IMG/VR virus record: IMGVR_UViG_3300010352_001565
Span: 179,055-222,710 of that record
DNA: 43,656 bases
DNA from: a virus
Strand: one strand, 5' to 3'
The notes under the pieces were generated by a model. That model was not told the origin of the DNA and did no database searches. It saw nothing but the letters and a program-made list of their open reading frames with translations. Shown one piece after another: positions 359 to 43,208 of the stretch. Position numbers and translations under genes: made by a program. Position 1 is the first letter of the stretch. The number at the start of each line of letters is the position of its first letter.

Positions 359-1354
359 ATGAAATCTGTTTACATGGAACAGCGCGGATCATCCGGCGAT
401 GTTCAGCACAACAAGTTTTTTGAGCTCAAAGACGACGGTCGCACCGTGATCGCCACCTGGGGAGCCATTAACACCAAAGGACAATCAAAGGTCCTTGTGG
501 AATCGGAAGACCCTGCAGTACGCCAAGCGGCGTGGGACAAAAAGTTCAAGGAAAAAGCTCACCGCAAAGACAAGCCTTACGTCGTCATTAAAAAGGACGG
601 CGAACAGGTGGAAGACCGCCCATCTGCTGACGGGCGGCGATGGGGATTGGAAGTTGAGACCCACTCTAACCTGGAGCTTCGCGAGATCGCAAGGCGCATG
701 CAGGAACGCGGTCTTAAAGTCAACCTTGAATCGGGGCGCTACTTCCACTCGACAGGCGCAACATGGGATATTAAGCGCGACGGGTCATGCGGGTATGAGT
801 TCGCGAGCCCAATTTCCTCTGGGGAGCGCGGAATTTTCGACGCCAAAGTCGCGGTCGAAAAAATCCGAGAAGTTTGCCCGAACGCTGTGAACTCTAACTG
901 CGGCGTGCACGTGACTGTAGATGTCTCGGACCACAGCCCTCGAGACCTAAAGCGCCTTGCTGTTGGCTATCTCCGCGCACAGGAGCACTTCTACACTCAG
1001 TGCAACGAGTCGCGCCAGCAAAACCGCTACTGCAAGCGCAACCCGACGCAGAACATCAGCCAAATGATCGCCATGCACCCGGACAGCATCCAGCGCATTC
1101 TTGATCTTGCTGGTGGATGGAGAAACCACGATGACCGCTACCATGGTCTAAACTTCACCAGGGTCTTCTCGATCAAGGTTGTTGAGTTCCGCATGCTCGA
1201 ATCGACTGTGGCCATCCGCAAGGTTGGCGCGTGGATCGAGATGTGCGTGGGATTTGTGGACGGTCTCAAGAAATCCGGCGTCGAGTTCAAGTCAACGGGA
1301 CAGTTCTCAGAAGAGACTTTCAACCGCATACTTTCAGGAACCTTTACTGTCTAA
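359..1354 (+). CDS. amidoligase (GCS2 / COOH-NH2 ligase, glutamine-synthetase-like fold), paralog A
   Basis: Three motifs characteristic of the phage 'putative amidoligase enzyme' family are present in order: G-hEhE (WGLEVETH), G-hHhxh (CGVHVTVDV) and hEhR (VVEFRMLEST). ORFs 1739-3157 and 11647-12708 share the same three motifs in the same order. Confidence 0.6.
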   Translation: MKSVYMEQRGSSGDVQHNKFFELKDDGRTVIATWGAINTKGQSKVLVESEDPAVRQAAWDKKFKEKAHRKDKPYVVIKKDGEQVEDRPSADGRRWGLEVETHSNLELREIARRMQERGLKVNLESGRYFHSTGATWDIKRDGSCGYEFASPISSGERGIFDAKVAVEKIREVCPNAVNSNCGVHVTVDVSDHSPRDLKRLAVGYLRAQEHFYTQCNESRQQNRYCKRNPTQNISQMIAMHPDSIQRILDLAGGWRNHDDRYHGLNFTRVFSIKVVEFRMLESTVAIRKVGAWIEMCVGFVDGLKKSGVEFKSTGQFSEETFNRILSGTFTV

Positions 1355-1357
1355 CTT

Positions 1358-1732
1358 ATGGAAAAGAAGAAATCGCCAGGTCAACTCGCGTACGAAGCCC
1401 ACCACGCTTACCTCAATAGCAACCCCGATTTCAGGTATGATTCTAAATCGCCTTGGGAGAACGCTACTGAGGATGTGAAAAAGGCATGGGAACTTGGCGC
1501 GGCTGCGTGCCGCCGTCCTTTGGCTGAAAAGCTCTACAGCGCGAGGCATTACGTTACCCGTCTCCTTATCTGCTATCGGGATCACCTACTTGGGACCTGG
1601 TACGAAGACACCGCAAAAGGATGCGGCATCTCCGCGGATGGATGCGGGTTTCTCGAGCACACCTACCGCTGGGACAATCCTGGCGATAAAGGTGCCGATA
1701 AGGTTGTGGATGCGCTTGCCAGTTCTGACTGA
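1358..1732 (+). CDS. hypothetical protein (124 aa) inside the amidoligase cluster
   Basis: The ATG is 4 nt after the upstream stop. Composition is coding-like. I recognise no motif. Confidence 0.5.
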   Translation: MEKKKSPGQLAYEAHHAYLNSNPDFRYDSKSPWENATEDVKKAWELGAAACRRPLAEKLYSARHYVTRLLICYRDHLLGTWYEDTAKGCGISADGCGFLEHTYRWDNPGDKGADKVVDALASSD

Positions 1733-1738
1733 CGTGAT

Positions 1739-3157
1739 ATGCCTCGGACTAAGCTAACATACGGAATCGAGTTGGAGTGCACTAAGCTCATGCCCAACGC
1801 GGCTGAGATCATTGCACGCCGCGAGTTTGACAACCATTACGACAACTCCATCAAAGGAAACGATGGCGAGGATCTCCCGCGCGGAGAAGGTGGCGGATCT
1901 GAACTCGTCACCAAGCCTCTGATCATTGAAGCTTACTTGCACGATCGCAAAGCCGTGCTGAACGACCGGAACGATACCAAAGCGGTTGTCCGCGACCTGT
2001 GCAGCTGCGCGCAGTCCGTAAACAAATCGTGTGGTCTGCATATCCACATCGGCTGTCCGCTGGAGAGCACTGGGCGTAGCACTCAGATGAGGAGCCGCTG
2101 GAATCCAGAGCAGACGCGGACGTTTCTCGCCATCGCGCTTGCTCTCGAGGATAAGATGTTTGACCTCTGCCCTCCGAGCAGAAGGAACAACAGCTACTGC
2201 AAAACGATTCGCGAGTTATACACCAACGCAGAGCTTGAGGCCTTTCACCCCACGGGAGAAGTTGTCGCCCGTAAGTGGGACAACGCCAAGCGCTACTGCT
2301 GGTTTAACATCGTCGAGACTCTCCGGATTGACAACGTCCCGTCGTCTCCAGGAACCGTCGAGATTCGCATGCTTGGAGCAGTGCGCAGGTTTGAATACAT
2401 TTGGTCCTGGATTAACCTCTGGCTCAAGATCGGAACTTATGTGGCATTTGCTACTCCAGCTTCTGCGATAATGAGCTGCGTACATTCTGGGGCGCTAGAC
2501 GAGGACATTGAGGCAGTGAGGACCGCGAAGAATTCGAAAGTTTCTCCGGCCGCTGAGCGGTCTCCGAGCATTTCGCGAATTGACGACGAGCATCCGAGAA
2601 ACGGCAGGTCTTTGCCTGTGTTCAACCCTACTCACCAAGCGTGGGAAATTCCAGCGACTCCAAGCTGGTCAGAGTTTCCTGGTGGTGCTGAAGACGGCGG
2701 ATACTCGGGAACGCAGATCAGATACTCTGACAGTGCGGAGACCGACAGCCAGCGGCAACAACGAATGGTTCAGGATTTAGTGAACGCATCTCAGCGGTCT
2801 CGCGAGGTGGCCCAAGCGGCTCCAGCTCCTGCCGCAACTCCAGCTCCTGCCGCAACTCCTGCTCCCGCTCCAGAACCCGCACCTTTACCCCCTCCTCCGC
2901 AACGACGACGAGGGCTTAGGCCGATTCAAGAGCGCATTCGCGATGCTGTTCGAGCTGAGCGCGCAAATGCACAGCAGGAGAACGCGCAGCAAGAGGAGAA
3001 CGTTCAATCAACTCCTCCATCCTACCGCGTGGTTGGAACATCCACCGGTCGATTAACTTCTTCCGGATCGAACGTGACTAGCAGACCGCGAGAGGAGAGC
3101 GAGGGCGGAGACCACTTTAGCGTCCTTGACTACGATGGCTTTGGCGAGCACTATTAA
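1739..3157 (+). CDS. amidoligase paralog B with a Pro/Ala-rich low-complexity C-terminal extension
   Basis: Carries YGIELECT, CGLHIHIGC and VEIRMLGAV. In the amidoligase / gamma-glutamyl-cysteine-ligase-2 fold these correspond to the metal-binding Glu pair, the His pair and the ATP-binding Arg. About 150 C-terminal residues are AAPAPAATPAPAATPAPAPEPAPLPPPP-like, encoded by an 18-bp tandem repeat at about 2821-2870. Confidence 0.6.
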   Translation: MPRTKLTYGIELECTKLMPNAAEIIARREFDNHYDNSIKGNDGEDLPRGEGGGSELVTKPLIIEAYLHDRKAVLNDRNDTKAVVRDLCSCAQSVNKSCGLHIHIGCPLESTGRSTQMRSRWNPEQTRTFLAIALALEDKMFDLCPPSRRNNSYCKTIRELYTNAELEAFHPTGEVVARKWDNAKRYCWFNIVETLRIDNVPSSPGTVEIRMLGAVRRFEYIWSWINLWLKIGTYVAFATPASAIMSCVHSGALDEDIEAVRTAKNSKVSPAAERSPSISRIDDEHPRNGRSLPVFNPTHQAWEIPATPSWSEFPGGAEDGGYSGTQIRYSDSAETDSQRQQRMVQDLVNASQRSREVAQAAPAPAATPAPAATPAPAPEPAPLPPPPQRRRGLRPIQERIRDAVRAERANAQQENAQQEENVQSTPPSYRVVGTSTGRLTSSGSNVTSRPREESEGGDHFSVLDYDGFGEHY

Positions 3158-3202
3158 ATAGTTGCAAAAAAGTGTTTACAATTTTCCGTGGCGTGATATA
3201 GT
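3155..3202 (+). promoter_or_regulatory. conserved phage promoter copy 2
   Basis: The sequence is aatagttgcaaaaaagTGTTTACAattttccgtggcgTGaTATAGT. An ATG at about 3209 opens a 14-codon leaderless mini-ORF that overlaps the start of the GATase gene. Confidence 0.65.
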
Positions 3203-3240
3203 AACAATATGAATTTTGAATTTAACCAAAAGGATAAACG

Positions 3241-4278
3241 ATGTGCGCAATAATTGGTTGGGCCGGAAAGATCCCAAAAGGCCTGCTGACCCGCATGCTG
3301 ATCGGGGCTGAAACCCGAGGCAAGGATTCGACTGGACTCGCTTTTCGAGCAGTTGAAGATGGGAAGACATGCAATCTATGCTATCGCCACATCGTCCCTG
3401 CCCGCACCTTCGTTGACATCCACAAGGACTTCGTGGGAGACGCCCGGCGTTCATTCCGCGGCATTGCTCACACTCGCAATGCATCTCCTGGAATGCCGAT
3501 CGATAACTCGAACGCGCACCCATACGTCTATCCGTGGGAAAACATGGGCAAGTATTACTTTGCGCACAACGGGCGAATCCAAAACTGGAAAGTTATCAAA
3601 GCGGAGCAGATTGAAATCTACTCCAGAGAGCTGAACGAGCTGATCTCAGAATTTGTGGCGCTTACGGCATCTGGCGAGAAGCCAATGACCGCTGAAGAGG
3701 TTAAGGTCGTCCTGACTGCCCTTGCGAAAGCTGAGCGCGAGCCTGTCTCAAAAGAGCAGGATGCTCTGAAAGCACTCGCTGAGGACAAGTTCAACGCCGC
3801 TCAGGGAATCGCCGCCCGTCTTCGCTACGTCGAAAATGCGACAACAGACTCGATGATTCTCGGACCGTGCATCGAGAACCGCGACTTCAGCGAAGTTGAC
3901 GGTTGCATGGCGCTGGTCTGGATGAAAGCAGACAACGTCTATACCTTCAGGAGCGCTAAAGAAGCTGTTGCGGCGACCGTCGTTTGGAAATACAAAAAGC
4001 CAGCGTCCGGAGAACCGGCAGACGACCAGCTTGTCACCATTGTTGCCAGTACGAAAGAGATTATCGAGAAGTCATTCGACAAAATCGCGGACGCTGTTGA
4101 CTCTGACATCGCGTTCATCAACTACGACGAGGGGCGCATTTACCGGCTTATGCCCAACACCATGGTTGATGAAGGGCGCGTTCCTGTCCACCAGGCAATT
4201 GAGGACGAGTTTTCATCATCGGTCGTTGAAACCGAAACCGCTGAGCAGATCAAAATTGAAGACGCGGGAACCAAATGA
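3241..4278 (+). CDS. class-II (Ntn-hydrolase) glutamine amidotransferase-like protein
   Basis: The N-terminus is MCAIIGW, so Cys becomes residue 1 after Met removal, the nucleophile position in GATase type 2. It also has HTRNASPG and YFAHNGRIQNW (an HNG-I-N-like motif). An AAGGA RBS lies 8 nt upstream. Confidence 0.6.
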   Translation: MCAIIGWAGKIPKGLLTRMLIGAETRGKDSTGLAFRAVEDGKTCNLCYRHIVPARTFVDIHKDFVGDARRSFRGIAHTRNASPGMPIDNSNAHPYVYPWENMGKYYFAHNGRIQNWKVIKAEQIEIYSRELNELISEFVALTASGEKPMTAEEVKVVLTALAKAEREPVSKEQDALKALAEDKFNAAQGIAARLRYVENATTDSMILGPCIENRDFSEVDGCMALVWMKADNVYTFRSAKEAVAATVVWKYKKPASGEPADDQLVTIVASTKEIIEKSFDKIADAVDSDIAFINYDEGRIYRLMPNTMVDEGRVPVHQAIEDEFSSSVVETETAEQIKIEDAGTK

Positions 4279-11365: not shown

Positions 11366-11412
11366 AAATAGTTGCAAATAAATGTTTACAAATTTTAGTT
11401 TCGTGATATAGT
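11363..11412 (+). promoter_or_regulatory. conserved phage promoter copy 3
   Basis: The sequence is aaaatagttgcaaataaaTGTTTACAaattttagtttcgTGaTATAGT. The -10 sits inside the palindrome CGTGATATagtcATATCACG. The ATG at 11422 is 9 nt after the -10. Confidence 0.7.
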
Positions 11413-11646: not shown

Positions 11647-12708
11647 ATGCCTAACAACGGACCCATACCTTCATACGCCAGTGAGAGACTCATTGGACTC
11701 GAGCTCGAGTACGACGCAAAAACCACCAAGCTCAGCTTGCCAACGACGACACCTTCTGGCTGGTCGCGGCAGTCTGACGGCAGCCTGCAGAATGGCGTTG
11801 AGATGGTGCTCAATCCTCCTCTGACGCTGACAGATGCAACTCCAGTGGTCAAAGAGTTCGCTGACGCTTTCAACCGAGCCCGGACAAACACCTTCAGCAG
11901 CGGCGGCTTCCACGTTCATGTTCAGGTTGCGGATTACACCGAGCATGACGCCGGAAATCTCGCTCGCCTCTACCACCATTTTCAGACGCAGATTAACCGG
12001 TTGCTTGGAAAATCTCGCCACAACAACCACTACTGCCCTCCGTTTACGCACTCCGTGACAGATGCCGATCTTTCGTCGAGATTTAATCTCGGCTCGCTTG
12101 CCAGCACGAGAGCCAGCGCCAAGTCTGCCCGCAAATACCAAGTGGTGAACTTCGCAATGATGCGGTGCACTCGCCACAGCGACCGCACGGTGGAATTTCG
12201 CCAAGGAAGCACCACAAAGCGGTTTGAGTGCATCATTGGCTGGGCGGCATTCTGCGTTGCCATGGTTGAAATCGCCAAGAACGACGCCATGACCAGCGCT
12301 TACATCGGTCAGCAAGCGTCGTGGGAAAACTTCGTGCAGATGCTTCGCGACCACGAATCCATGGTTGGTGCCAGCCACATTGCTGACTGGGTGGTTTGGA
12401 GACGCGAATATCTCGAAGAGACACCGAGCGACGAGCTCATCTCAAAAGCAGTTGCCGCTATGGGACGCCGTCCTCGCGGAATCTTTCACATCTCGCGCGC
12501 TCTCGACATCAACTTGCCGCTGAGCGAGCGGACTCTAAACGCCGCCGTTTCTCGCGGTCTGATTGCTAAGATCGGATCGAAATACCAAGCAAAGTTTGTC
12601 TCATTCGCGGGGTCAGATCTTGAGCAGCTTCAACAAGCCGCGGAAGCCAGGGAGGCAGCTATGCCCGCTGACCGCTCAGGCGAGGTTCTACCTGGAGAGG
12701 AACAATAA
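11647..12708 (+). CDS. amidoligase paralog C
   Basis: Carries IGLELEYD, GGFHVHVQV and VEFRQGSTT, the same three-motif architecture as ORFs 359-1354 and 1739-3157. Confidence 0.6.
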   Translation: MPNNGPIPSYASERLIGLELEYDAKTTKLSLPTTTPSGWSRQSDGSLQNGVEMVLNPPLTLTDATPVVKEFADAFNRARTNTFSSGGFHVHVQVADYTEHDAGNLARLYHHFQTQINRLLGKSRHNNHYCPPFTHSVTDADLSSRFNLGSLASTRASAKSARKYQVVNFAMMRCTRHSDRTVEFRQGSTTKRFECIIGWAAFCVAMVEIAKNDAMTSAYIGQQASWENFVQMLRDHESMVGASHIADWVVWRREYLEETPSDELISKAVAAMGRRPRGIFHISRALDINLPLSERTLNAAVSRGLIAKIGSKYQAKFVSFAGSDLEQLQQAAEAREAAMPADRSGEVLPGEEQ

Positions 12709-17538: not shown

Positions 17539-17975
17539 GCTACATCCTAGCCAGCAGATACGCAGGAATAACGACCATTCCGGTAAGCCTTCCTCAGCTT
17601 GAGCTGAGACCCGGAGACTCTGCTGTTGTTTCCATGCTTAAGATCGAGCAGAACCAGAAGATGATGCTGAGGTGGCTGAGTTTGAACCTTATCAAGCTTT
17701 GCGGGGTTAACGCTACAAACCCAACTCTTATCAACCCAGGTCTCGGGATAGTCTACGCTGGAGTCTACTCTTCTGGGTACAACTCGACGTATGGTCCGTG
17801 TGGAACTCCAATCGCTCTGGTTTCAGTAAAGTCCACAGGCACCTCAATGATTAACCCGTACCACCCTAGAAACTTTGAGAGTCCTGACACCTACTCAATT
17901 ATCGTGTCGAACAACACGCAGAGCACCACAGTTAACGTCGGAGTTTCAGGATCTATTCTGTACTACTTTTTATGA
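17535..17975 (+). CDS. hypothetical structural protein, paralog 2
   Basis: It is N-terminally similar to ORF 17056-17538. Confidence 0.5.
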   Translation: MSYILASRYAGITTIPVSLPQLELRPGDSAVVSMLKIEQNQKMMLRWLSLNLIKLCGVNATNPTLINPGLGIVYAGVYSSGYNSTYGPCGTPIALVSVKSTGTSMINPYHPRNFESPDTYSIIVSNNTQSTTVNVGVSGSILYYFL

Positions 17976-20900
17976 TACAGTCGGCAAGAGTCATAGCTCA
18001 AGCGGCGAGCATCCTGGCGCAGCAGTCGTCTGAGCCTGGTGTTGTTGCTGTTATCAACGCAGAAAATACCTCTCCGATCGTAATCACGACCGCTGAACCG
18101 ACTGGGCTTGCAACCGGGGACAAGGTCTCAGTTTCTGGAGTGCTTGGAAATCTTGCGGCAAACGTGACAGACTGCACCATCACAGTTCTGAGCTCGACAC
18201 GGTTCAGGCTTAACGGCACCACTGCGAGTGGCGCGTACACTTCTGGAGGGTGGGTTAGCGGCCACACTCTGTGTCCTGCGGCAACAACTGGGGACTTTAA
18301 TCCAACCACTTTTTCAAGGCGAGACAACGAGCTTCAGTACCGCGACCTCGTAGTTGCAGCCCACCTTATGGAGGTGTCAATGCGAGCGTCGACAGTGTGG
18401 TCGTTCGTCGCTCCGCGCATCCTCATACCGTCAGTTCCGTCTCCGAACCTCGACTATAAAACGCAAGATCTTGACGCGTCTCAAGCTGGAAAAGTTCTTC
18501 ACGTTCTGAACAGCTCGTTTCCAAGTGCCGCCGTAGCGACCGACAAGCAGCTTTATTACCGCGATACCATTCTCCTTGAAGCGCTTGCTCGAGCAGGTAA
18601 GGTGTTTGAGCCAGATTTTACGCTTCTTCCTGGAGGACAGCAGATCCCATCTGCAACAATATCCGATGCGTGGTCGCTCGCAGAAGGAGCACCTTCCAAT
18701 AGGAGCGTTTCAGGAGCGCACCAGCTCAACCGCGACTTGTTCAAAGTCCCTGACCAGAATCTTGCTGACCGTGACAACCAGATTGCGTCTGTTGCATCGC
18801 GTCTTATCGCCGTGCTGACAAGCCCGCTTGACTACGCAAACAGGCTATATGTCAAAATAGGAACGCGGGAACCTACTACGTTCGCCATTGTGGAGAATGA
18901 AAGCCGCGATGACACCAGAACGTGGGCTGGAATGCCGCAGTTATCAGCTGGAAGAAATCGACTGATCTACTCAAAGTCTCAGAAGACAATGACGTGGGTC
19001 CCTGAGGATGGGTCGGCGCCCATTGTTGCGCAGGCCGTCCCTCCGACGATGGACGCTAATGGATCCACAACTGCGATGACAGTCCAAAGCTCTGGAGGAT
19101 CCATGGACTTGGTAGCGAGCATCCCGGCGTCCCCGGATGCAGTAACCAGGCTAGATCGCGCGAAGCTTCTCAAATTTAGCGGGGCGTTGGAAATCGACGG
19201 AGTCTGCTACACTGGCGACGACTTTGGAGGTCCTCTTCTAGATGGAAGCAAGTGCCTCTACACCCCGTACAACATCAGCACCGGAGTCGGTTGGGGAGAG
19301 CTTCCAGCAGGAACTTATCGCGTTTCTATTCTTGTGCGACCAGGAAGCATCCTTGAATTTCCAGGAGCAAATCTGACTTCAGGCGCCTCGTACACATTTA
19401 CGCCTCTTATTTCGAGTAGCTCTTCTCGATGGAAGCTTTCCTTTGTCTACTCAAACTCTACCGCAACCTCATGCGAAGCTGGGACGTCTGGGGCTCCACA
19501 GATTCTATCCATTGTTGCTGGAAGTGGAACATCAAACCCTGTTTATTTCGATGGATCGCCGTTGCGCATCAAGCCTCTTAACGGAACTCTTAACATCAGC
19601 AAGGTGATCCTTACAGAAGAAAATTACACCGTAGATCCTCAGTACTCGATTCATGCTGTGCTTACGGATGACATGGGGTCGAACATGGGGTCGTCGCCCG
19701 TGGACATTACCATGTACGGGCGCCGCCAGCGGTACGACGTAGTAACGTTTGATTTTACAACAACGATCGCGTCAAGACACCCTATTTTGTGGCTTATCAC
19801 AGGAGTTCAACCATGCCCACTCGTGCTTAGCGCCATTCACATTCAGGCGGCAAACGCAGTGACTGGAACTCCCGAGACTGGAGGTCACGCCGCTTGGAAG
19901 TACGACTCCCTGATGAAAGCGCTCTCCGACGTCAAGGCATCGTACAGCCAGAAGATAAATTCTCCGATCGGTCAAGAGCACCAGCTTCCAGGGACTGACT
20001 ATTTCACAAACAGGTTTACACTGTCTTTCAACAAGTCGATCATACTGGCGGGATCTAACATCTCGTCGACCTCAGAGCCAGGAGAGCCAAATCATGGACC
20101 GCTCGGGGCGTATGGAGGAAAGTCGCTTTGGTGGGCGTGGACTGCTACGCACGACTGCACCGTCACGATCAACTACGACGGCAGTCTGATGGACGACGAA
20201 GGAGTGTGCTGGGCGTCTGTCGCGATATACACGGGAGAGTCGCTGCAGTCACTGCAAAGGGTGACAACGTCTTCTCCAGGACAAAATGCAATTTCATTCC
20301 AGGCAGTGAAAGGAACAGCGTACTCTATTGCAGTTGATGGAATTAACGGAGCATCCGGGTCGATCGTACTTGCCGTATCGCTAAGCACCGCCGCAAATAC
20401 CCTTCAGGAAAATGCGGTCCCGGTTTCAAACTTCTCCGTCCGTCAGCTTGTCAGCGAGACTCAGCTCTCGGTGCCGAACTACGCTTGGTACTTGTTCACC
20501 TCTCCGGTTAGCGGCTATGTGAAAGTGTACGTTGATGGAAGCGAAAATCAAGACAGCAGAAATCTTAAAGTCACTCAGAACGGAACAGACGTAGCCGCCG
20601 TTGTAACCACGTCAAGATCTATAGTGTTTAACGCTGAGTCTGGAGTTGACTACCTCATAAAGATAGGCGGCGATGGAAAGACCTGCCTTAGCATCTCCCC
20701 TTATTACTCGAACCCAGATGGAACGTGGGATAGGAACAGCATCGAGCGCTGGATGTCTGACATTGAGACGCTGCACGCGCGCATCAAGACAGCGTTCAGG
20801 CAGTCGCGCCCAGGCGACATCGGAAAACCGTGCCTGCTTCCCCGCGGTCTGTCGGTCACAGCTAACGGGTCTGTTCACGGAGAATACGGCTCTACTTGGA

Positions 20901-21028
20901 GCACTCCGACGATTGTGGCATTGCAGCCGTGGATGATTGCGATTGGAGCCTACGTGGCAGACCGCGAGTTCTGGCCAGCAGAAAGCACGATCGAGGTTTC
21001 GTCGATTACACAGGCTGGAATGCAGTAG
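17972..21028 (+). CDS. large S/T/G-rich virion protein, probably a tail fibre or receptor-binding protein
   Basis: It is 1018 aa, beta-rich and of low-charge composition. It is the last gene of a tightly coupled operon 16743-21028. I recognise no enzymatic motif. Confidence 0.4.
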   Translation: MIQSARVIAQAASILAQQSSEPGVVAVINAENTSPIVITTAEPTGLATGDKVSVSGVLGNLAANVTDCTITVLSSTRFRLNGTTASGAYTSGGWVSGHTLCPAATTGDFNPTTFSRRDNELQYRDLVVAAHLMEVSMRASTVWSFVAPRILIPSVPSPNLDYKTQDLDASQAGKVLHVLNSSFPSAAVATDKQLYYRDTILLEALARAGKVFEPDFTLLPGGQQIPSATISDAWSLAEGAPSNRSVSGAHQLNRDLFKVPDQNLADRDNQIASVASRLIAVLTSPLDYANRLYVKIGTREPTTFAIVENESRDDTRTWAGMPQLSAGRNRLIYSKSQKTMTWVPEDGSAPIVAQAVPPTMDANGSTTAMTVQSSGGSMDLVASIPASPDAVTRLDRAKLLKFSGALEIDGVCYTGDDFGGPLLDGSKCLYTPYNISTGVGWGELPAGTYRVSILVRPGSILEFPGANLTSGASYTFTPLISSSSSRWKLSFVYSNSTATSCEAGTSGAPQILSIVAGSGTSNPVYFDGSPLRIKPLNGTLNISKVILTEENYTVDPQYSIHAVLTDDMGSNMGSSPVDITMYGRRQRYDVVTFDFTTTIASRHPILWLITGVQPCPLVLSAIHIQAANAVTGTPETGGHAAWKYDSLMKALSDVKASYSQKINSPIGQEHQLPGTDYFTNRFTLSFNKSIILAGSNISSTSEPGEPNHGPLGAYGGKSLWWAWTATHDCTVTINYDGSLMDDEGVCWASVAIYTGESLQSLQRVTTSSPGQNAISFQAVKGTAYSIAVDGINGASGSIVLAVSLSTAANTLQENAVPVSNFSVRQLVSETQLSVPNYAWYLFTSPVSGYVKVYVDGSENQDSRNLKVTQNGTDVAAVVTTSRSIVFNAESGVDYLIKIGGDGKTCLSISPYYSNPDGTWDRNSIERWMSDIETLHARIKTAFRQSRPGDIGKPCLLPRGLSVTANGSVHGEYGSTWSTPTIVALQPWMIAIGAYVADREFWPAESTIEVSSITQAGMQ

Positions 21029-26092: not shown

Positions 26093-26136
26093 TTTTTGCA
26101 AAAAAGTGTTTACAAATTTCCGAAACGTGATATAGT
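26093..26136 (+). promoter_or_regulatory. conserved phage promoter copy 4
   Basis: ttttttgcaaaaaagTGTTTACAaatttccgaaacgTGaTATAGT. The ATG at 26143 is about 8 nt after the -10. Confidence 0.7.
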
Positions 26137-27011: not shown

Positions 27012-27086
27012 GCTCCCGTAGCATAGTGGTTATGCGCCAGACTCTAAATCTGTTTTACGCCGGTTCAATCCCGGCCGGGAGCACCA
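27012..27086 (+). tRNA. tRNA with anticodon CUA (amber suppressor; identity unknown)
   Basis: Manual cloverleaf: 7-bp acceptor stem (GCTCCCG/CGGGAGC), D-arm gcat-agtggtt-atgc, anticodon stem ccaga/tctgt with loop C-T-CTA-A-A (U33 and A37 are canonical), a 5-nt variable loop, T-arm gccgg-TTCAATC-ccggc, discriminator A and an encoded CCA. Confidence 0.7.
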
Positions 27087-27520: not shown

Positions 27521-27907
27521 GTGTCTGAACCGGCCGCTGATCAAACCATGCGGCTGTACGCCATCGCTCATGCCAACCTCGGCATGGGAACTGGCAAACT
27601 CGCTTCTCAATGCGGTCACGCATTCACTGAAGCGCTTCTTCACTCACAAGAGTTTCAACCTGCTCGTTTTAAGGAATACCGCTCAGACGGGATGGGCACT
27701 AAAGTGGCCCTCTCTGCGAATTCCACCGACGAGATCCACAGCATCAAGTCCAAGTGCGACGAAGCTGGCATTCCGGCGACGATCATCACGGATTCTGGGT
27801 GTGCTAATTTCTTCAACGGAGCCCCGACGATAACCGCCATCGGCGTGGGACCTGCGAAGAGACACGAAGTCAAAAAGATCCTCGGGCGGTTAAAACTGAT
27901 CAACTGA
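27521..27907 (+). CDS. peptidyl-tRNA hydrolase, PTH2 family
   Basis: LGMGTGKLASQCGHA and GTKVAL...GIPATIITDSGCANFFNGAPTITAIGVGP...ILGRLKL align motif by motif with archaeal and eukaryotic PTH2 (LGMGKGKVAAQCSHAA ... [21 protein letters not shown]...VTGHLKL). The track start is a GTG. The first ATG is at about 27548 and has no obvious SD. Confidence 0.8.
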   Translation: MSEPAADQTMRLYAIAHANLGMGTGKLASQCGHAFTEALLHSQEFQPARFKEYRSDGMGTKVALSANSTDEIHSIKSKCDEAGIPATIITDSGCANFFNGAPTITAIGVGPAKRHEVKKILGRLKLIN

Positions 27908-29480: not shown

Positions 29481-29532
29481 CTCAAAAATAGTTGCAAATA
29501 AATGTTTACAAATTTCCGTAGCGTGATATAGT
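29481..29532 (+). promoter_or_regulatory. conserved phage promoter copy 5
   Basis: aaaatagttgcaaataaaTGTTTACAaatttccgtagcgTGaTATAGT. A leaderless 13-codon mini-ORF (MIANNPASALRAA) starts at about 29539. Confidence 0.7.
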
Positions 29533-33629: not shown

Positions 33630-34454
33630 ATGAGTGCTGAGCCACTTCAAACGTCCGCCAATAGCCCAGATTCGCTTCCGCTGGTCGGTTACACAATCGA
33701 CCAGCTTAAAGCTTATATCCTTCGATCGCTTGGATCTCCGATGTGGAGCGTGGAGGTCACCCAACAGCAAGTCCTTGATTGCATAAACGACGCGCTTGGG
33801 AAGTTTTCTCAGTGGTGCCCTCAGCCAAAGTTTGGGTCGGTCAAGATGGTTGAGGGCCAATCAGCCTACCTCAAAGGAGTCGACGTTGGCCAGGGAATCG
33901 CCCAGATTGACTTTGTCGAGCCGATGCCGCTCCAGTACGAGCTCTTCTACGGCAACCTTTTCAACAACGGTCCGCTTGTTGGACGCGGTCTCGAGGAGAT
34001 GGACATGTGGCTCAGGTGGAGAAAGACCTGGAAGCGGGTCATGTCAGTTCAGCCAGACTGGATCTACGACGAGGTCAACAGGGTCCTTCTGATACACAAT
34101 CCGATTGACCGGTACCATGCAGGGATCATTTGTTACGGCAACTATGAGCGGACAGAGCGCCTGCCAATGACAGGAGCCCAGTGGGTCAAGGAGTTTGCCC
34201 TAGAGAAAGCCCGGTACCAGTATGGCGAGAATATGTCCAAGTTCAGCGGCGCCATTCCTGGTCCGCTTAAAGACCTTCAGATGGACACCTCCAAGCGCGA
34301 CAAAGCCGAAGCCCGCATGGAGAAGCTGCTCGAGAAGCTCCAGGGAATGCAGACCAGCACCCCCATCATGATCGATACCATCTTAGCTTTACTGATTCCA
34401 GCAGGCTTGGCAGTATCTAGTCTGTGGAATACTATGTTTACGAGTTGGTGTTAA
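33630..34454 (+). CDS. hypothetical protein (274 aa), possibly virion-associated
   Basis: I recognise no motif. The CCCTA-gtatt-TAGGG hairpin lies just upstream. Confidence 0.45.
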   Translation: MSAEPLQTSANSPDSLPLVGYTIDQLKAYILRSLGSPMWSVEVTQQQVLDCINDALGKFSQWCPQPKFGSVKMVEGQSAYLKGVDVGQGIAQIDFVEPMPLQYELFYGNLFNNGPLVGRGLEEMDMWLRWRKTWKRVMSVQPDWIYDEVNRVLLIHNPIDRYHAGIICYGNYERTERLPMTGAQWVKEFALEKARYQYGENMSKFSGAIPGPLKDLQMDTSKRDKAEARMEKLLEKLQGMQTSTPIMIDTILALLIPAGLAVSSLWNTMFTSWC

Positions 34455-35287
34455 TGCCTGACAACCGCGTCCTTTACGTCGGAAAAGGACACGGTTCGCG
34501 GATGAGTTTTCACCAAAAAGTTATTGACCATCCTCAAAATAAGCTGAATCAGCGTCCGATGTACCAAGGGCTGCGCGCTGAGCTCACACCTGGAAAGTCG
34601 TTTATCGCGCGAAAGGTGTTTGAGTCCGCCGACGAGATCGTGTGCCTTCTCGAAGAGCAACGGCGAATCCACGAATACGGATTCGATAATCTGTTAAACG
34701 TGGCTTCTCACGCCTTCACTGGACGCCGAATGAAACCAGCTGTTGGAAGGCTTATCGCTTCTAAGCTCAAAGCCTATGTTCAACGCTGTCGCGATCAGTA
34801 CGGATCTGGGCACCCTCCAGAAGTTGCTGCCAAAATCGCGGCGTCAAACCGCGGAAAGCAGCTAAGCTCAGAGCACATTCAGAAAATTCGTGATCTCCAT
34901 GCGTCTGGAAAGATGGACCACGTTCATGTTGTGTTTACTGACGCCGGACGCCGAGCGCAGTCTGAACGCGGCTTCTCTGAAGAGCACCGCAAGGCGCTGT
35001 CCATATCCTGCCGCGGTAGGAAGTACCCAAACAGAAGGCGTCCTGGAATCATTCAAAAACAGGATAAAATGAGGTACAAAGGAGTGTCGCTGTTTAAAGG
35101 AAAGTGGGTGGCTAGGATCACAATCGAAGGCAAGGTAAAGATGGTTGGAGTGAGGTCAGATGACCGCCAAGCAGCCGTGCTGTACGACAACGCGGCTGAG
35201 AAGCTGTTCGGAAAGAGACCGAACGCCACAGAGCGCTCAGAGCAGGTCCAATCTGCGTGGGCAACGGCGTCAAGTTTGAAATGGTAG
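34424..35287 (+). CDS. GIY-YIG homing endonuclease with NUMOD3 and AP2 DNA-binding domains
   Basis: The N-terminus YYVYELV...NRVLYVGKG is GIY-YIG-like. KIAASNRGKQLSSEHIQKI is NUMOD3-like. YKGVSLFKGKWVARITIEGKVKMVGVRSDDRQAAVLYDNAA is an AP2 domain. The start is a GTG that overlaps the upstream gene by 31 nt. Confidence 0.7.
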   Translation: MEYYVYELVLMPDNRVLYVGKGHGSRMSFHQKVIDHPQNKLNQRPMYQGLRAELTPGKSFIARKVFESADEIVCLLEEQRRIHEYGFDNLLNVASHAFTGRRMKPAVGRLIASKLKAYVQRCRDQYGSGHPPEVAAKIAASNRGKQLSSEHIQKIRDLHASGKMDHVHVVFTDAGRRAQSERGFSEEHRKALSISCRGRKYPNRRRPGIIQKQDKMRYKGVSLFKGKWVARITIEGKVKMVGVRSDDRQAAVLYDNAAEKLFGKRPNATERSEQVQSAWATASSLKW

Positions 35288-35302: not shown

Positions 35303-35345
35303 AATACTAAAAAGTGTTTACAAAATGCTGAAAGCGTGATATAGT
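35303..35345 (+). promoter_or_regulatory. conserved phage promoter copy 6
   Basis: actaaaaagTGTTTACAaaatgctgaaagcgTGaTATAGT. The spacer is 17 bp. Confidence 0.65.
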
Positions 35346-35364: not shown

Positions 35365-35952
35365 ATGAGAATCGACGACTACATCTTGCAGTGCGGTGTT
35401 CGATCGCTGTGCGAATCTGAGTCTTCAGATACGCCTCCGACGCCGCAAGAAGTGGCTGAACTCTTGGCCTACCTTCGGAAGTTCAAGCTGAACCCTGTCA
35501 TTGTCGGTGGAGTCGCCGTGTTCCACCACTTGAAGTCGGCTAAGTCAAGCGATTTCCGTCCTACTGTGGACATCGACGTCCATGTCACCAGGCCTCTTCC
35601 TCCTCCGCCTTCCGGGTGGAGTGACAACAACCATGAAGGAATTGACAGCTGGAAAAGCCCGTCTGGCGGCAACGTCGATTTTATCATCGGCGGTCAGGTC
35701 CTGTCTGGGACGTATCGCACTCTAAAGAGTGTCAAGGTAGCTCCAGATTCACCCCAGGAGTATCCTGTGGCTGCGCTTGATGACTTGCTAAGGATGAAGC
35801 TTGGGACCTTCAGAGAGAAGGACCAGAGAGATCTTATCTCGCTTGCTCACGCCTATGAGTTTCCTGAGCTCAGCGGACTGACAAGGAATCAGAAAGAAGA
35901 CTACGACTTCTTCAAAGGTTACGCAGCGAGCATCAAGGCGCGGAAGGAGTAG
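35365..35952 (+). CDS. nucleotidyltransferase-fold protein (AbiEii / DUF1814 / MNT-like)
   Basis: VIVGGVAVFHHLKSAKSSDFRPTVDIDV matches the Pol-beta superfamily hG[GS]...D.D signature, with AbiEii-like spacing. It is the first gene after an early promoter. Confidence 0.4.
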   Translation: MRIDDYILQCGVRSLCESESSDTPPTPQEVAELLAYLRKFKLNPVIVGGVAVFHHLKSAKSSDFRPTVDIDVHVTRPLPPPPSGWSDNNHEGIDSWKSPSGGNVDFIIGGQVLSGTYRTLKSVKVAPDSPQEYPVAALDDLLRMKLGTFREKDQRDLISLAHAYEFPELSGLTRNQKEDYDFFKGYAASIKARKE

Positions 35953-36205
35953 TAGGAGGTTCGGCTTTGGCTTTCACCGGAGGTTGCTCGGCTTTCACCG
36001 CGGTAACCTCATTCACCAGCTCTTGGTAGTCTGCGATAATGGCTTGGGCTTCCTGAAGCATCGCCGCAGTCATGATCATCACATTGGCTCTAGCATTAAA
36101 TTGTGCGGCGCGGCGGCCAAGAGTTAGTTTATCCACATTCTTTAGAACATGTCGATTAAATTTTCGCTGTGCTACACGTCGTGCAGAGCGCACCTGATCA
36201 AGCAA
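35933..36205 (-). CDS. possible small minus-strand protein in the gap upstream of the GT2 gene
   Basis: The plus strand has a 195-bp ORF-free gap here. The minus ORF has a coiled-coil-like sequence. Its low-complexity end overlaps the stop of the NTase gene. Confidence 0.25.
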   Translation of the reverse strand: MLDQVRSARRVAQRKFNRHVLKNVDKLTLGRRAAQFNARANVMIMTAAMLQEAQAIIADYQELVNEVTAVKAEQPPVKAKAEPPTTPSAP

Positions 36206-37747
36206 ACCGTTAACCTCTGGAAATCCAGGGCAAAAGATCCCAGCCAGGTCGAGGTCATCGTTGCTGTCGATGCCACTGATACAGCCGGCATCGAGGTCTG
36301 CGAGCAGATGAGAAAGAGCAACGGAGACAACGACACGTTCGACTTCGTTATCCAGGGGTCAGAGCCGTTCAATTGCGTCAAGGGCTGGAACCTTGCAGCT
36401 GAATACTGCCGCGGCGACGTCCTGATCGCGATCTCTGATGACTTCTCACCTCCTGGACACTGGGACTCTCAGCTCATCGGAAGCTTAAGACCTGGATGGT
36501 GGTCTGAAGAGTGCGTGGTCCACGTAAACGATGGCTATGTGAAGACCATATGCACTCTTCCGATTATCACCAGAAAGCGCTATGACAAGTTTGGGTACAT
36601 CTACCACCCAAGATACCAGTCGATGTTCTGCGACACTGAGCTTACAGAGCGCGCATACCAAGACGGAGTGGTTATCGAAGCCATGCACCTCCTGTTTGAA
36701 CACGAGCACCCTGACTGTGGCAAGCGGTCCGGAGACGCTTTTGACGCCCACCACGCTTCAAAACAGAGGTGGAACGAGGGAGAGGCGATTTTCAACGAGA
36801 GGAAGAAACTCGGTTTCCCAAGTGACTCTGAGCTTGAGCAGCGCAACTCGTTTGTGGCATATTTCCAAGTCACGAAAGATGACTTCTGCTTGCTTGAAGT
36901 TTGCTTGAGGCTTGTCAGCGAGGGAGTAAAGTCGTTCCGGTTCTGCATCCCAAGCGAGTACTGGTCTGGAAAGGTGGTAAGCCAAGAAGAAATCGCGCAG
37001 GTCGAAGACGTTCATAAGCGCCTGGTCGCTGACGGACTCAACTCAAAGCTGAAGATCTTTGACGTCAAGAGTCACCGCACAGGAAAGGGACTGCTGGTAG
37101 ACGTTGAGGCCGGTGTCCGTAATGATTCTCTGGAGTGGATCCGCAGCGACGGCTTTAAGCACATCCTCGTGGTTGATGGGGACGAGCTATGGCGCACTGG
37201 GACGCTCACGCTAATCCAGCGCTGCATTAACAGCGTTCAACCGGATTCCATCAGCTGCAGGTGCATTCCAACCATCGGCCTTCCAGGACTTCCGATCGAA
37301 GGGGCTCAGGATCTCGTTGGGGTGTACATCGGAAACGGAAAAATCTTCGATAGCTGCAGGACTCCTCGCGGGAACAAGAAAGCTCTGATTGACTCGCATA
37401 ACGTCATCCATTTTACAGCCACGCGGAAAACGATGGATGAGATCATCAAGAAGCACCGAGAATCAGGTCACTACGACGACCCAAACTACGACTTCGAGGG
37501 ATGGATCTCCAGAGTGCTTCCAAACGTGCATCCAGGGATGCGCAACGCCCACATGTACAGGCCTTACCAAATCTGGCCGTTGATCAGAGCATGGACTGAC
37601 GATGAACTCGCAGACATCCCTGAATCAGTTAAAAAGTACCTTTCGCTCGCTAAGCTTGAACCTGTAAAGACTGCCAAGCAGCCAAAACGCCGCATGATAC
37701 CGTTTGCGGAGTCCCTGTCGCGCCCCAGCAACTACCGGCACGTCTAA
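36149..37747 (+). CDS. GT-A fold (GT2-like) glycosyltransferase with a C-terminal extension
   Basis: N-terminal SIKFSLCYTS ... EVIVAVDATD ... KGWNLAAEYCRGDVLIAISDDF matches the GT2 NxGxAxARNxGxxxAxGxYIxFLDxDD block. It is 532 aa. A second DGDE lies in the C-terminal half. Confidence 0.55.
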   Translation: MSIKFSLCYTSCRAHLIKQTVNLWKSRAKDPSQVEVIVAVDATDTAGIEVCEQMRKSNGDNDTFDFVIQGSEPFNCVKGWNLAAEYCRGDVLIAISDDFSPPGHWDSQLIGSLRPGWWSEECVVHVNDGYVKTICTLPIITRKRYDKFGYIYHPRYQSMFCDTELTERAYQDGVVIEAMHLLFEHEHPDCGKRSGDAFDAHHASKQRWNEGEAIFNERKKLGFPSDSELEQRNSFVAYFQVTKDDFCLLEVCLRLVSEGVKSFRFCIPSEYWSGKVVSQEEIAQVEDVHKRLVADGLNSKLKIFDVKSHRTGKGLLVDVEAGVRNDSLEWIRSDGFKHILVVDGDELWRTGTLTLIQRCINSVQPDSISCRCIPTIGLPGLPIEGAQDLVGVYIGNGKIFDSCRTPRGNKKALIDSHNVIHFTATRKTMDEIIKKHRESGHYDDPNYDFEGWISRVLPNVHPGMRNAHMYRPYQIWPLIRAWTDDELADIPESVKKYLSLAKLEPVKTAKQPKRRMIPFAESLSRPSNYRHV

Positions 37748-37992
37748 TGGACACCGACCACCTCATTTGGGAAGAGAAGAAGATCCTCGACGACTTAAGA
37801 GACTTAAGGCCAGGAGAGATCAAGCTATGGACGCTTATAAACAAAGCCTCGGCTGATCTTCCAAACCTCGGTCAAACCGCTCGTGAGAATCGCCAGGTGG
37901 TGACGTCGCTAGTTAGCCGACTCATGCGCGAGAAAAAGATCAAGCGAAACAGAAAAACAAACATGGTTCGCATTAGCGAGGTCTTCGCATGA
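37747..37992 (+). CDS. small basic protein (81 aa), possible winged-helix regulator
   Basis: A TAATG overlap couples it to the GT2 gene. The helix-turn-like segment is KLWTLINKASADLPNLGQTARENRQVVTSLVSRL. Confidence 0.35.
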   Translation: MDTDHLIWEEKKILDDLRDLRPGEIKLWTLINKASADLPNLGQTARENRQVVTSLVSRLMREKKIKRNRKTNMVRISEVFA

Positions 37993-38005
37993 AGTTCTTT
38001 TAGCA

Positions 38006-39262
38006 ATGAGCGACACCAAAAAACGCACCCCTCACAATTCTCAGTGGTCAATCGTAACTCTTAAAGAGCCAGTCCTGTGGTCCAGGACGGACAGCGAAGT
38101 GTGGATGCTGAATCCAACAGTTCGATACGTCATGAACTCAGATCAGCTCGAGCACCTCAACCACCTTGTTGACACTTGCTCAGACCTGCGAAATTCCGCG
38201 TTCCACAAGCCTCTTAACGGCCTTGCGAATCTCGCTCAGAAAAAGATTCTTGTCGAGCGCTATCGCGGACGCGGAGTCGGAGACCTGCTATTCATGACAG
38301 GTCCTCTGAATTACATCCGGCACATTTCAGGACACAGCGCGAAAATAGAGTTTTATGCTCTCGCTGAGAGGTCGCAAGTTCTCCAGCTGCATCCCGCTCT
38401 CGCTCACAAGAGCACGCTTGCTGGACCGCTGATCTACGACACCATCAACCAGTATGACTACCAGTGGTTCTCGGACTGCGTAACTGAATACGACGAAGAG
38501 AAGGATCAGCTCAACGTGTACGACGCGCTGTTCAAGCAAATCGGCATCGATCCGCAGAGCGTCGGAGCAGAGTTCAAGCGACCAAGCATTCACCTTGACG
38601 AACAGGACTTCGCGAATCTTGACACTTTCTACTACTTTGTATATGGAGATCGGCACATCGACTTGCGCAAGACAGGCTACTACGTGGTGGCTCCTCTGAG
38701 CAATGGGACGCTGAGATCGCTGCCGTACGCCTCCTGGCTAGAAATCATCTCTGAGCTGTCGAAGAAGCGCCCTGTAGTTGTGATCGGCCAGATGTCTGAA
38801 AGAGTTCCTCCGATGGACATGACTGGTGGAGAATTCTACTCCCAGGTTAACCAGCTTGCTCCGAACGTTATCAATGCCATGGGAAACACCCAGCTTCGCG
38901 TCGTGTCAGCCATTATCGCGAGAGCAACTGGCGTGGTGTGCCTGGACTCTGGCCCACTCTATATTAGCCAAGCTTTGCGCACGCCTGCCATCTCAATCTG
39001 GGGACCGCATCATCCTGGCGTTCGCATCGGATACGACAAGGACTACATGGAGCTTGCTATCTGGAATTCGAGTGCATGCAGCTACGCACCGTGCTTCGCG
39101 TACCACGGGTTTCCGACTCAAAAATGCCCACAAGGAGATTCTCAGCGCATTTGCGAAGTTCTAAAGGTCTCGCCCGTCGAAAGCGTGATAAATAAGCTTG
39201 AGAAAATCGAATCTGGAAATCCGTCCGTCACATCTTTCAAGGCCGCTAAACCCACCAAGTAA
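38006..39262 (+). CDS. GT9-family (ADP-heptose:LPS heptosyltransferase-like, GT-B fold) glycosyltransferase
   Basis: GVGDLLFMTGPL is the GT9 N-terminal motif. NAMGNTQLRVVSAIIARATGVVCLDSGPLYISQALRTPAISIWGPHHP matches the RfaF/WaaC C-terminal donor-binding block. Confidence 0.6.
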   Translation: MSDTKKRTPHNSQWSIVTLKEPVLWSRTDSEVWMLNPTVRYVMNSDQLEHLNHLVDTCSDLRNSAFHKPLNGLANLAQKKILVERYRGRGVGDLLFMTGPLNYIRHISGHSAKIEFYALAERSQVLQLHPALAHKSTLAGPLIYDTINQYDYQWFSDCVTEYDEEKDQLNVYDALFKQIGIDPQSVGAEFKRPSIHLDEQDFANLDTFYYFVYGDRHIDLRKTGYYVVAPLSNGTLRSLPYASWLEIISELSKKRPVVVIGQMSERVPPMDMTGGEFYSQVNQLAPNVINAMGNTQLRVVSAIIARATGVVCLDSGPLYISQALRTPAISIWGPHHPGVRIGYDKDYMELAIWNSSACSYAPCFAYHGFPTQKCPQGDSQRICEVLKVSPVESVINKLEKIESGNPSVTSFKAAKPTK

Positions 39263-43162: not shown

Positions 43163-43208
43163 AAAAGTTAACAAAAAGTGTTTACAAATTCTAAGTTCGT
43201 GTTAAATT
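43163..43208 (+). promoter_or_regulatory. conserved phage promoter copy 7 (variant -10 TGtTAAATT)
   Basis: gttaacaaaaagTGTTTACAaattctaagttcgTGtTAAATT. Confidence 0.55.

Follow-up and report, generated by a model that had tools for sequence, protein, structure and literature searches.

A predicted AbiEii/MenT-type nucleotidyltransferase encoded without an antitoxin in uncultivated large phages

We analyzed a 43,656-nucleotide (nt) stretch of viral DNA (positions 179,055 to 222,710 of IMG/VR record IMGVR_UViG_3300010352_001565; referred to here as the window) and focused on an open reading frame (ORF) of 195 amino acids (aa) that very probably encodes an intact nucleotidyltransferase (NTase) of the AbiEii/MenT type, carried in phages as a solo gene. 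AbiEii and MenT NTases are known as toxins of bacteria; by preventing tRNAs from being charged, they halt growth or cause phage infection to abort, and to our knowledge they are always held in check by an antitoxin. Here, machinery of this type is found on the phage side, where it has no antitoxin, is conserved in several divergent lineages of large uncultivated phages, and appears to be placed for early expression. An earlier note, made from the letters of the window, had described an AbiEii/MNT-like minimal NTase and favored its use as an antitoxin mimic. That interpretation is partly supported: the NTase fold and the AbiEii-type arrangement are borne out, whereas the mimicry of MNT proteins of HEPN-MNT pairs is not, and what emerges as new is an uncurated, solo copy of the toxin type in a phage.

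Fold, active-site motifs, and family of the NTase

The ORF has the coordinates, strand, and length that the earlier note had given (Table 1). Between the upstream in-frame stop and its ATG there is no other possible start, and the start is sound because homologues are conserved from residue 3 onward. Codon usage is gene-like (the ORF scores 0.227 per codon, 29 long ORFs average 0.265, and all other frames are negative), and the ORF is real. The GG-x19-DID signature noticed earlier is exact (V-G48-G49, 19 residues, D69-I70-D71-V). A search for the Pol-beta pattern hG[GS]-x9-20-Dh[DE]h through all six frames of the window, covering 118 ORFs of 100 aa or more, matched the NTase ORF alone.

An AlphaFold2 model built from a 36-sequence family alignment was very confident (predicted local distance difference test score, 95.2; predicted template modeling score, 0.91) and has a strand-helix-strand-strand core followed by a C-terminal helical lobe. 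MenT1 was the clear best match in two independent structure searches, so that the predicted fold agrees with solved AbiEii/MenT members and the NTase fold assumed earlier holds at the level of structural prediction. By sequence, a profile of the 11 closest relatives placed MenT1 as the fourth best of 177,635 PDB sequences, with an E value of 1 that is not significant alone.

Four motifs have been described for AbiEii/DUF1814 proteins: motif I, hG[G/S]; motif II, DhD, with a longer spacer than is usual for Pol-beta proteins and, four positions ahead of its first Asp, an Arg specific to the family; motif III, with Lys and Arg (KLxAaxxR in COG4849); and motif IV, a “+DxxD” found only in this family (Dy et al. 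2014, PMC3985639). All four were found in the NTase, as the AbiEii-type arrangement proposed earlier would have it. The motif II spacer spans 19 residues, compared with 15 in AbiEii, and R65, D69, and D71 are invariant across the 11 close relatives, as are the Lys and Arg of motif III, which lie five rather than seven residues apart. G48 is kept in at least 90% of the family, and so are D153 and D156 in the family as a whole. In the HMMER alignment of MenT1 with the NTase, RFTRDVDI pairs with RPTVDIDV, VDLL with VDFI (which contains D105), PVA with P134-V-A, K137 with K145, D149 with D153, and D152 with D156; the residues paired with the MenT1 active site are all invariant in the close relatives. 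In MenT1 itself, toxicity depends on D41, K137, and D152; D43 supplies the second Asp for metal binding, and the ribose is contacted by D149 (PMC10435456, PMC11375011, PMC3985639). T67, likewise invariant in the close relatives, stands where MenT1 and MenT3 have a phospho-acceptor two residues before the first Asp (T39 and S78, respectively; PMC10435456, PMC11375011), and by analogy it may play the same role. From these alignments and the model, we conclude that the NTase probably represents a divergent, uncurated branch of the AbiEii/MenT lineage with a predicted intact active site.

Other features are the family's own, including a conserved PPT..E motif in an N-terminal helix and a block that contains W85 and W96, the only two residues invariant in the whole family. 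The likeness of PPxGW...W.SPSGG to a WW domain was rejected as a chance match (E = 0.6 to 1.2 against 2ysc, with the second Trp off the WW signature Trp), as were the matches to Cap10 (9ntn), p-coumarate decarboxylase, and the phage fr coat protein, all with E values of at least 0.14.

The family is small and uncurated, being absent from Pfam, PHROGs, NCBIfam, and PADLOC. Searches of the last three returned no match to the NTase, and the sole signal in Pfam was DUF6036 (PF19502), at 21.3 bits against a gathering threshold of 23.6. This match covers residues 31 to 73, from helix 1 through motif II, and aligns only the N-terminal quarter of the model (positions 11 to 46 of 164); weak DUF6036 matches recur in 8 of the 36 family members, and the NTase does not qualify as a DUF6036 protein over most of the model. 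The profile that the earlier note had proposed as a check, PF08843, gave no match to the NTase even at E values up to 10 and matched 1 of the 36 family members (E = 0.12), so that the NTase is not formally a PF08843 member. No match was obtained with MNT-type models (NTP_transf_2/Polbeta) or structures, or with the LicD and aminoglycoside-NTase models of Pfam. Searches with tblastn found nothing in 50,697 phage records and chance matches only in plasmids (E ≥ 3), and the BFVD viral structures gave nothing at E < 1e-3. A word-indexed protein search retrieved only the identical protein, and only four proteins with the family profile. When 1.84 billion cluster representatives were scanned exhaustively with HMMER, 55 proteins were listed at E ≤ 1e-3, mostly of about 200 aa. 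Five long repeat proteins in that list (P0031, P0033, P0040, P0043, and P0054) were rejected as relatives because their significance stems from repeat amplification: they match only residues ~78 to 137, many times, through the Ig-like repeat “TDGVDYxxGGKTVxAGTYPGTG”. Related loci were sought with the set of 11 close relatives, the full family having no sufficiently conserved stretch.

Promoter and gene neighborhood in phages and bacteria

A sigma-70-like promoter lies 20 nt ahead of the NTase ATG and, with 10 of 12 positions matched and a TG extension before the −10 box, is the best match of its type within 32 to 39 kb. It is a member of a stereotyped family, RTGTTTACAA...CGTGATATAGT (also RTG-TTTACAA(A/T)TT...CGTGATATAGT), with seven copies in the window, all intergenic and all on the plus strand; as these copies are nearly identical, they represent a phage promoter class and not a chance match to the consensus. 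With −35 and −10 hexamers set within the 16- to 18-nt spacing expected of such elements and recurring before genes, they have the form of promoters read by the host RNA polymerase with a sigma-70-type factor. The genes behind them include amidoligase-like genes, a unit containing an NAD-dependent DNA ligase, and the unit running from the NTase by way of two glycosyltransferases to a RecA/UvsX-like gene. Given the sigma-70 form and the replication and metabolism genes driven, it is reasonable to expect the NTase to be expressed early, that is, in the early or middle phase of infection. Of the earlier claim that the NTase is the first gene behind an early promoter, the gene's position and the reality of the promoter therefore stand, while “early” draws on the promoter type and the genes served. 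At one promoter copy (324 to 352), the ATG of the next ORF (359) is only 7 nt past the −10 box, so that the mRNA may be leaderless; similarly short leaders precede the NTase homologue in three other lineages (L013, L011, and L009).

Single intact copies were found in five further phage-like lineages, designated L009 (a 230-kb IMG/VR contig), L011, L012, L013, and L016, and a sixth contig, L015, of only 1.1 kb and without usable context, also has a promoter upstream of its homologue. A promoter of the form TT(T/G)ACA-16/17-TAnnnT stands directly upstream of the homologue in L009, L011, L012, and L013, and a sigma-70-like promoter is located one gene further upstream in L016. Being the first gene behind a host-type promoter is thus a conserved property of the phage copies. 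No conserved partner or candidate antitoxin gene occurs across the six phage lineages. In the window, the NTase has its own promoter and is preceded by a GIY-YIG-like gene instead of an upstream cognate antitoxin in a two-gene operon. Precomputed and new Pfam scans detected neither HEPN nor AbiEi domains in the neighbors, in agreement with the earlier note, which was imprecise in naming a small minus-strand ORF as the only neighbor: the GIY-YIG-like gene lies upstream and a glycosyltransferase block downstream (Table 1).

In L013 and L016, the gene order is conserved and consists of a gp13-like gene, a variable insert, the NTase, a GT-A-like protein of 510 to 532 aa, a GT9 protein, and proteins of ~155 and ~505 aa followed by UvsX, of which the ~505-aa protein and UvsX were seen only in L013, since the L016 contig ends before them. 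Identity across this conserved order is 31 to 58% at the protein level, with the NTase itself at 37 to 45%, and the orthologues of the downstream glycosyltransferase block are 48 to 52% identical with their order kept. L009 and L012 have other neighbors, with no glycosyltransferase in the flanks examined, and in L011 the gp13-like gene lies downstream of the NTase and is convergent with it. Judging by its changing occupants, the junction that separates the neck gene from the NTase looks like a hot spot for insertions: the GIY-YIG gene in the window, a different insert of 427 aa in L016, and nothing at the corresponding site in L013. If a GTG start is used, the GIY-YIG gene overlaps the end of the neck gene by 31 nt, and by eye its C-terminal part contains a putative AP2-type DNA-binding-like segment.

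In contigs of bacterial type (~40 to 48% GC; neighbors encoding SET-domain, FKBP/Mip-like, and U-box-like proteins), the family occurs as tandem pairs, and in all three pairs the upstream copy is degenerate and the downstream copy intact. In the upstream copies, catalytic residues are replaced (D69 by K or L, D71 by E, among others). Read from the sequences, such pairs could represent a toxin-antitoxin (TA) design in which a dead enzyme copy serves as the antitoxin neutralizing the live one. A partial family copy was also found in a Simkaniaceae metagenome-assembled genome (MAG). Two further members of the degenerate type have unusual contexts: P0037 (356 aa) has a C-terminal fusion that by eye is putatively S-adenosylmethionine-dependent methyltransferase-like, and the member at 7101-8624 of contig L006 (MAG GCA_021772455.1) lies directly downstream of a Methyltransf_21 gene and ~2 kb from a gene for a 1750-aa RHS/YD-repeat toxin.

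The source of the window is an uncultivated jumbo-phage lineage. Metagenomic contigs with the identical NTase protein reach 222,710 bp. Among the products of the window are a family-A-like DNA polymerase, a DnaB-like helicase, an NAD ligase, RecA/UvsX, a T4 gp13-like neck protein, the peptidyl-tRNA hydrolase PTH2, and a tRNA. The RecA encoded here shares no more than 28% identity with the RecA of any isolated phage. The tRNA gene (27012-27086, plus strand; Rfam tRNA, 64.2 bits) has the anticodon CTA, which would read the UAG stop, and is called tRNA-Pyl by ARAGORN. No sign of in-frame TAG recoding was seen within the window, where 7 of 36 long ORFs still terminate in TAG and the NTase terminates in TAG-TAG. 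The PTH2 homologue (27521-27907, plus strand) follows ~0.4 kb downstream of the tRNA gene, and as both are encoded in the same window, the phage invests in tRNA biology. Also on the plus strand, at 359-4278 and 11647-12708, are genes for three amidoligase-like proteins (PHROG 2443/7469) and for one similar to the N-terminal portion of a glutamine amidotransferase, each following a stereotyped promoter, and this gene set may constitute a peptide or base-modification pathway. A 1018-aa protein (17972-21028, plus strand) gave as its sole signal a ubiquitin-E1 FCCH domain over residues 37 to 95, near threshold at 29.3 bits against a cut-off of 29.5.

Table 1. Coordinates of the NTase gene, its motifs and neighbors, the promoter copies, and the bacterial tandem pairs (window positions unless a contig is named)
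Feature	Coordinates	Strand	Remarks
T4 gp13-like neck protein gene	33630..34454	+	Upstream of NTase
GIY-YIG (LEM-3-like) homing-endonuclease-like gene	34424..35287	+	Between neck gene and NTase promoter
Sigma-70-like promoter, TTTACA-17 nt-(TG)TATAGT	35317..35345	+	One of seven copies; leader to ATG ~13 nt
Promoter copies, stereotyped family	324-352, 3175-3202, 11385-11412, 26109-26136, 29505-29532, 35317-35345, 43181-43208	+	
NTase coding sequence, MenT1/AbiEii-like	35365..35952	+	195 aa; ATG 35365; stop TAG 35950-35952, then second TAG
Motif I, G48-G49 (hG[G/S])	35506..35511	+	Junction of strand 45-47 and helix 48-55
Motif II, R65-P-T67-V-D69-I-D71	35557..35577	+	Family-specific Arg, Thr, predicted metal-binding DxD on strand 69-74
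Family-specific block, G84-W85...W96-x-S98-P99-S-G-G102	35617..35670	+	No counterpart named in MenT/AbiEii motifs
D105, predicted third catalytic carboxylate	35677..35679	+	Strand 103-108; VDFI aligned with MenT1 VDLL
Motif III, K145-LGTF-R150, and motif IV, K152-D153-Q-R-D156	35797..35832	+	Helices 138-145 and 151-163
Small convergent ORF	35933..36079	-	48 aa from ATG 36079, or ≤90 aa from TTG 36205; overlaps NTase stop by 20 nt
GT-A-like glycosyltransferase	36149-37747	+	532 aa; downstream of NTase
81-aa ORF	37747-37992	+	Downstream of NTase
GT9 heptosyltransferase-like protein	38006-39262	+	Downstream of NTase
Bacterial tandem pair, contig L014	4128-4781 + 4835-5458		Upstream degenerate, downstream intact
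Bacterial tandem pair, contig L017	221-868 + 932-1555		Upstream degenerate, downstream intact
Bacterial tandem pair, contig L018	1629-2138 + 2155-2841		Upstream degenerate, downstream intact

Possible activity of the NTase and competing explanations

By analogy with its characterized relatives, we hypothesize that the NTase acts on the 3' end of RNA, a tentative reading to which we assign a probability of roughly 0.45. The enzyme would bind a nucleoside triphosphate with Mg2+ through G48/G49, D69, D71, D105, K145, and D153/D156 and would transfer the nucleoside monophosphate to an RNA 3'-OH, most likely the CCA end of host tRNAs. MenT1, MenT3, and MenT4 extend tRNA CCA ends and block aminoacylation (PMC10435456), and altered 3' ends would likewise change which tRNAs can be charged. 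Made early and without an antitoxin, such an enzyme would act on host RNA and might serve takeover, the redirection of translation, or interference with tRNA-based defense. A more specific scenario, in which the jumbo-phage lineage took the toxin half of a previously unrecognized MenT-like TA family with a dead-paralogue antitoxin and uses it, with no antidote, as an early effector editing the 3' ends of selected host tRNAs or of other RNAs so as to redirect translation or disarm defenses that target tRNAs, seems doubtful. The RNA reading has several weak points: the substrate is taken only from the nearest relatives, the NTase is not basic (isoelectric point, 5.97), a general tRNA toxin would harm the phage too, and the linkage to two glycosyltransferases, being conserved, may point to a small-molecule, glycan, or protein acceptor.

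That linkage leads to another explanation, namely, a transferase that is either ANT(2'')/Lnu-like, nucleotidylating a small metabolite (e.g., an anti-phage compound of the aminoglycoside type), or a LicD/FKRP-like phosphotransferase, decorating a glycan, protein, or DNA together with the adjacent glycosyltransferases. We consider this unlikely, as MenT1 leads both structure searches, the +DxxD of motif IV and the Arg of motif II are described as specific to AbiEii/DUF1814 (PMC3985639), and the LicD and aminoglycoside-NTase models were unmatched. Moreover, the flanks examined in L009 and L012 contain the gene's neighbors but no glycosyltransferase, so that the linkage may be mere inherited gene order. 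The NTase might instead modify a host protein, such as a defense or translation factor, by AMPylation or other NMPylation and thereby inactivate it early in infection. There is precedent for protein modification by NTases of the Pol-beta fold (MntA is reported to adenylylate HepT; PMC7641770), MenT/AbiEii proteins autophosphorylate the Ser/Thr two residues before the first Asp, which is kept here as T67, and early expression would suit a modifier used in host takeover. The nearest characterized relatives act on tRNA, however, and neither sequence nor context names a protein target, which makes a protein substrate appear quite unlikely.

The gene could also be the toxin of a phage-borne TA pair in which the small convergent ORF (35933-36079, or to 36205) encodes a MenA1-like antitoxin; MenA1 has 68 aa and no DNA-binding domain. 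The earlier note had called this ORF doubtful, yet its 48-aa version scores 0.309 per codon, above all 193 spurious ORFs of 50 to 110 aa (maximum, 0.254), and some metagenome annotations call it a gene, so it may be a real orphan gene. Its only match among 5.8 billion clusters is itself, it is convergent with the NTase rather than an upstream operon partner, and the gaps after the homologue in L013 (87 nt) and L016 (18 nt) leave no room for it, with a gp13-like gene occupying the downstream position in L011. The family thus cannot depend on the ORF as an obligatory partner, and we rejected it as an obligatory antitoxin, since related phages lack it even though its codon usage looks coding; a TA pair is accordingly very improbable. 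In the window, the corresponding gap (35953-36148) is unusually long for its unit at 196 nt and holds a short direct repeat (CGGCTTTCACCG, twice) in addition to the orphan ORF. A structured RNA was not apparent there (fold z-score, −0.56, not significant; no Rfam match), and no terminator was found in the gap and no terminator-like site on the plus strand between the NTase and 36149; the genes from 36149 to 39262 likely share the NTase transcription unit. The leading idea of the earlier note, an MNT-like mimic that neutralizes host HEPN RNases, has in its favor a Pol-beta core common to MNT antitoxins and a host-type promoter driving the gene. It is not supported by any match to MNT models or structures or by an adjacent HEPN gene, and we regard it as extremely improbable.

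If the NTase is active, it would be a phage effector working on RNA 3' ends or on another nucleotidylation target, which would amount to a new mechanism of host takeover or counter-defense. Should it indeed edit tRNAs, an anti-phage weapon would have been turned into a phage weapon. Describing the family would also improve the annotation of phage genomes and of genomes resembling those of intracellular bacteria.

Comparison with known systems

The MntA/MNT antitoxins of HEPN-MNT systems share the Pol-beta core with its G[GS] and DxD motifs. MNT proteins are smaller, have neither motif III nor motif IV, and come from genes beside a HEPN gene, and none of these traits applies to the NTase. The antibiotic NTases ANT(2'')-Ia (AadB) and LnuA scored below MenT1 in structure comparisons and gave no sequence-model match to the NTase, which differs from them in carrying the +DxxD and motif II Arg described as DUF1814-specific (PMC3985639), so it is placed with them neither by sequence model nor by best structural match. 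DUF6036 (PF19502), the only database family with any signal for the NTase, is an uncharacterized predicted NTase family of which no mention was found in the literature searched.

The closest solved relative is MenT1 (Rv0078A of M. tuberculosis; PDB 8AN4/8AN5), the toxin of MenAT1, which adds CMP to tRNA 3' ends. The two proteins are 15 to 18% identical, with no significant sequence match (E = 1), and the NTase differs in having an extra N-terminal helix (PPT..E), the W85...W96-SPSGG block, and the 19-residue G-to-D spacer. Further, it is more acidic, lacks an upstream MenA1-like antitoxin, and is encoded by a phage, whereas MenT1 is encoded on a bacterial chromosome. With its 195 aa, the NTase falls far short of the length of MenT3 and MenT4 (chains of 290 and 292 residues), to which AbiEii is similar in size. 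AbiEii (Streptococcus agalactiae and Lactococcus; DUF1814, PF08843), the toxin of the AbiE abortive-infection system, has the four motifs in common with the NTase and places them at nearly the same residue numbers (G49/G50, R63, D67, and D69, compared with G48/G49, R65, D69, and D71). The NTase has no AbiEi (COG5340) partner, and whereas AbiE is a bacterial defense against phages, the NTase gene is the phage's own.
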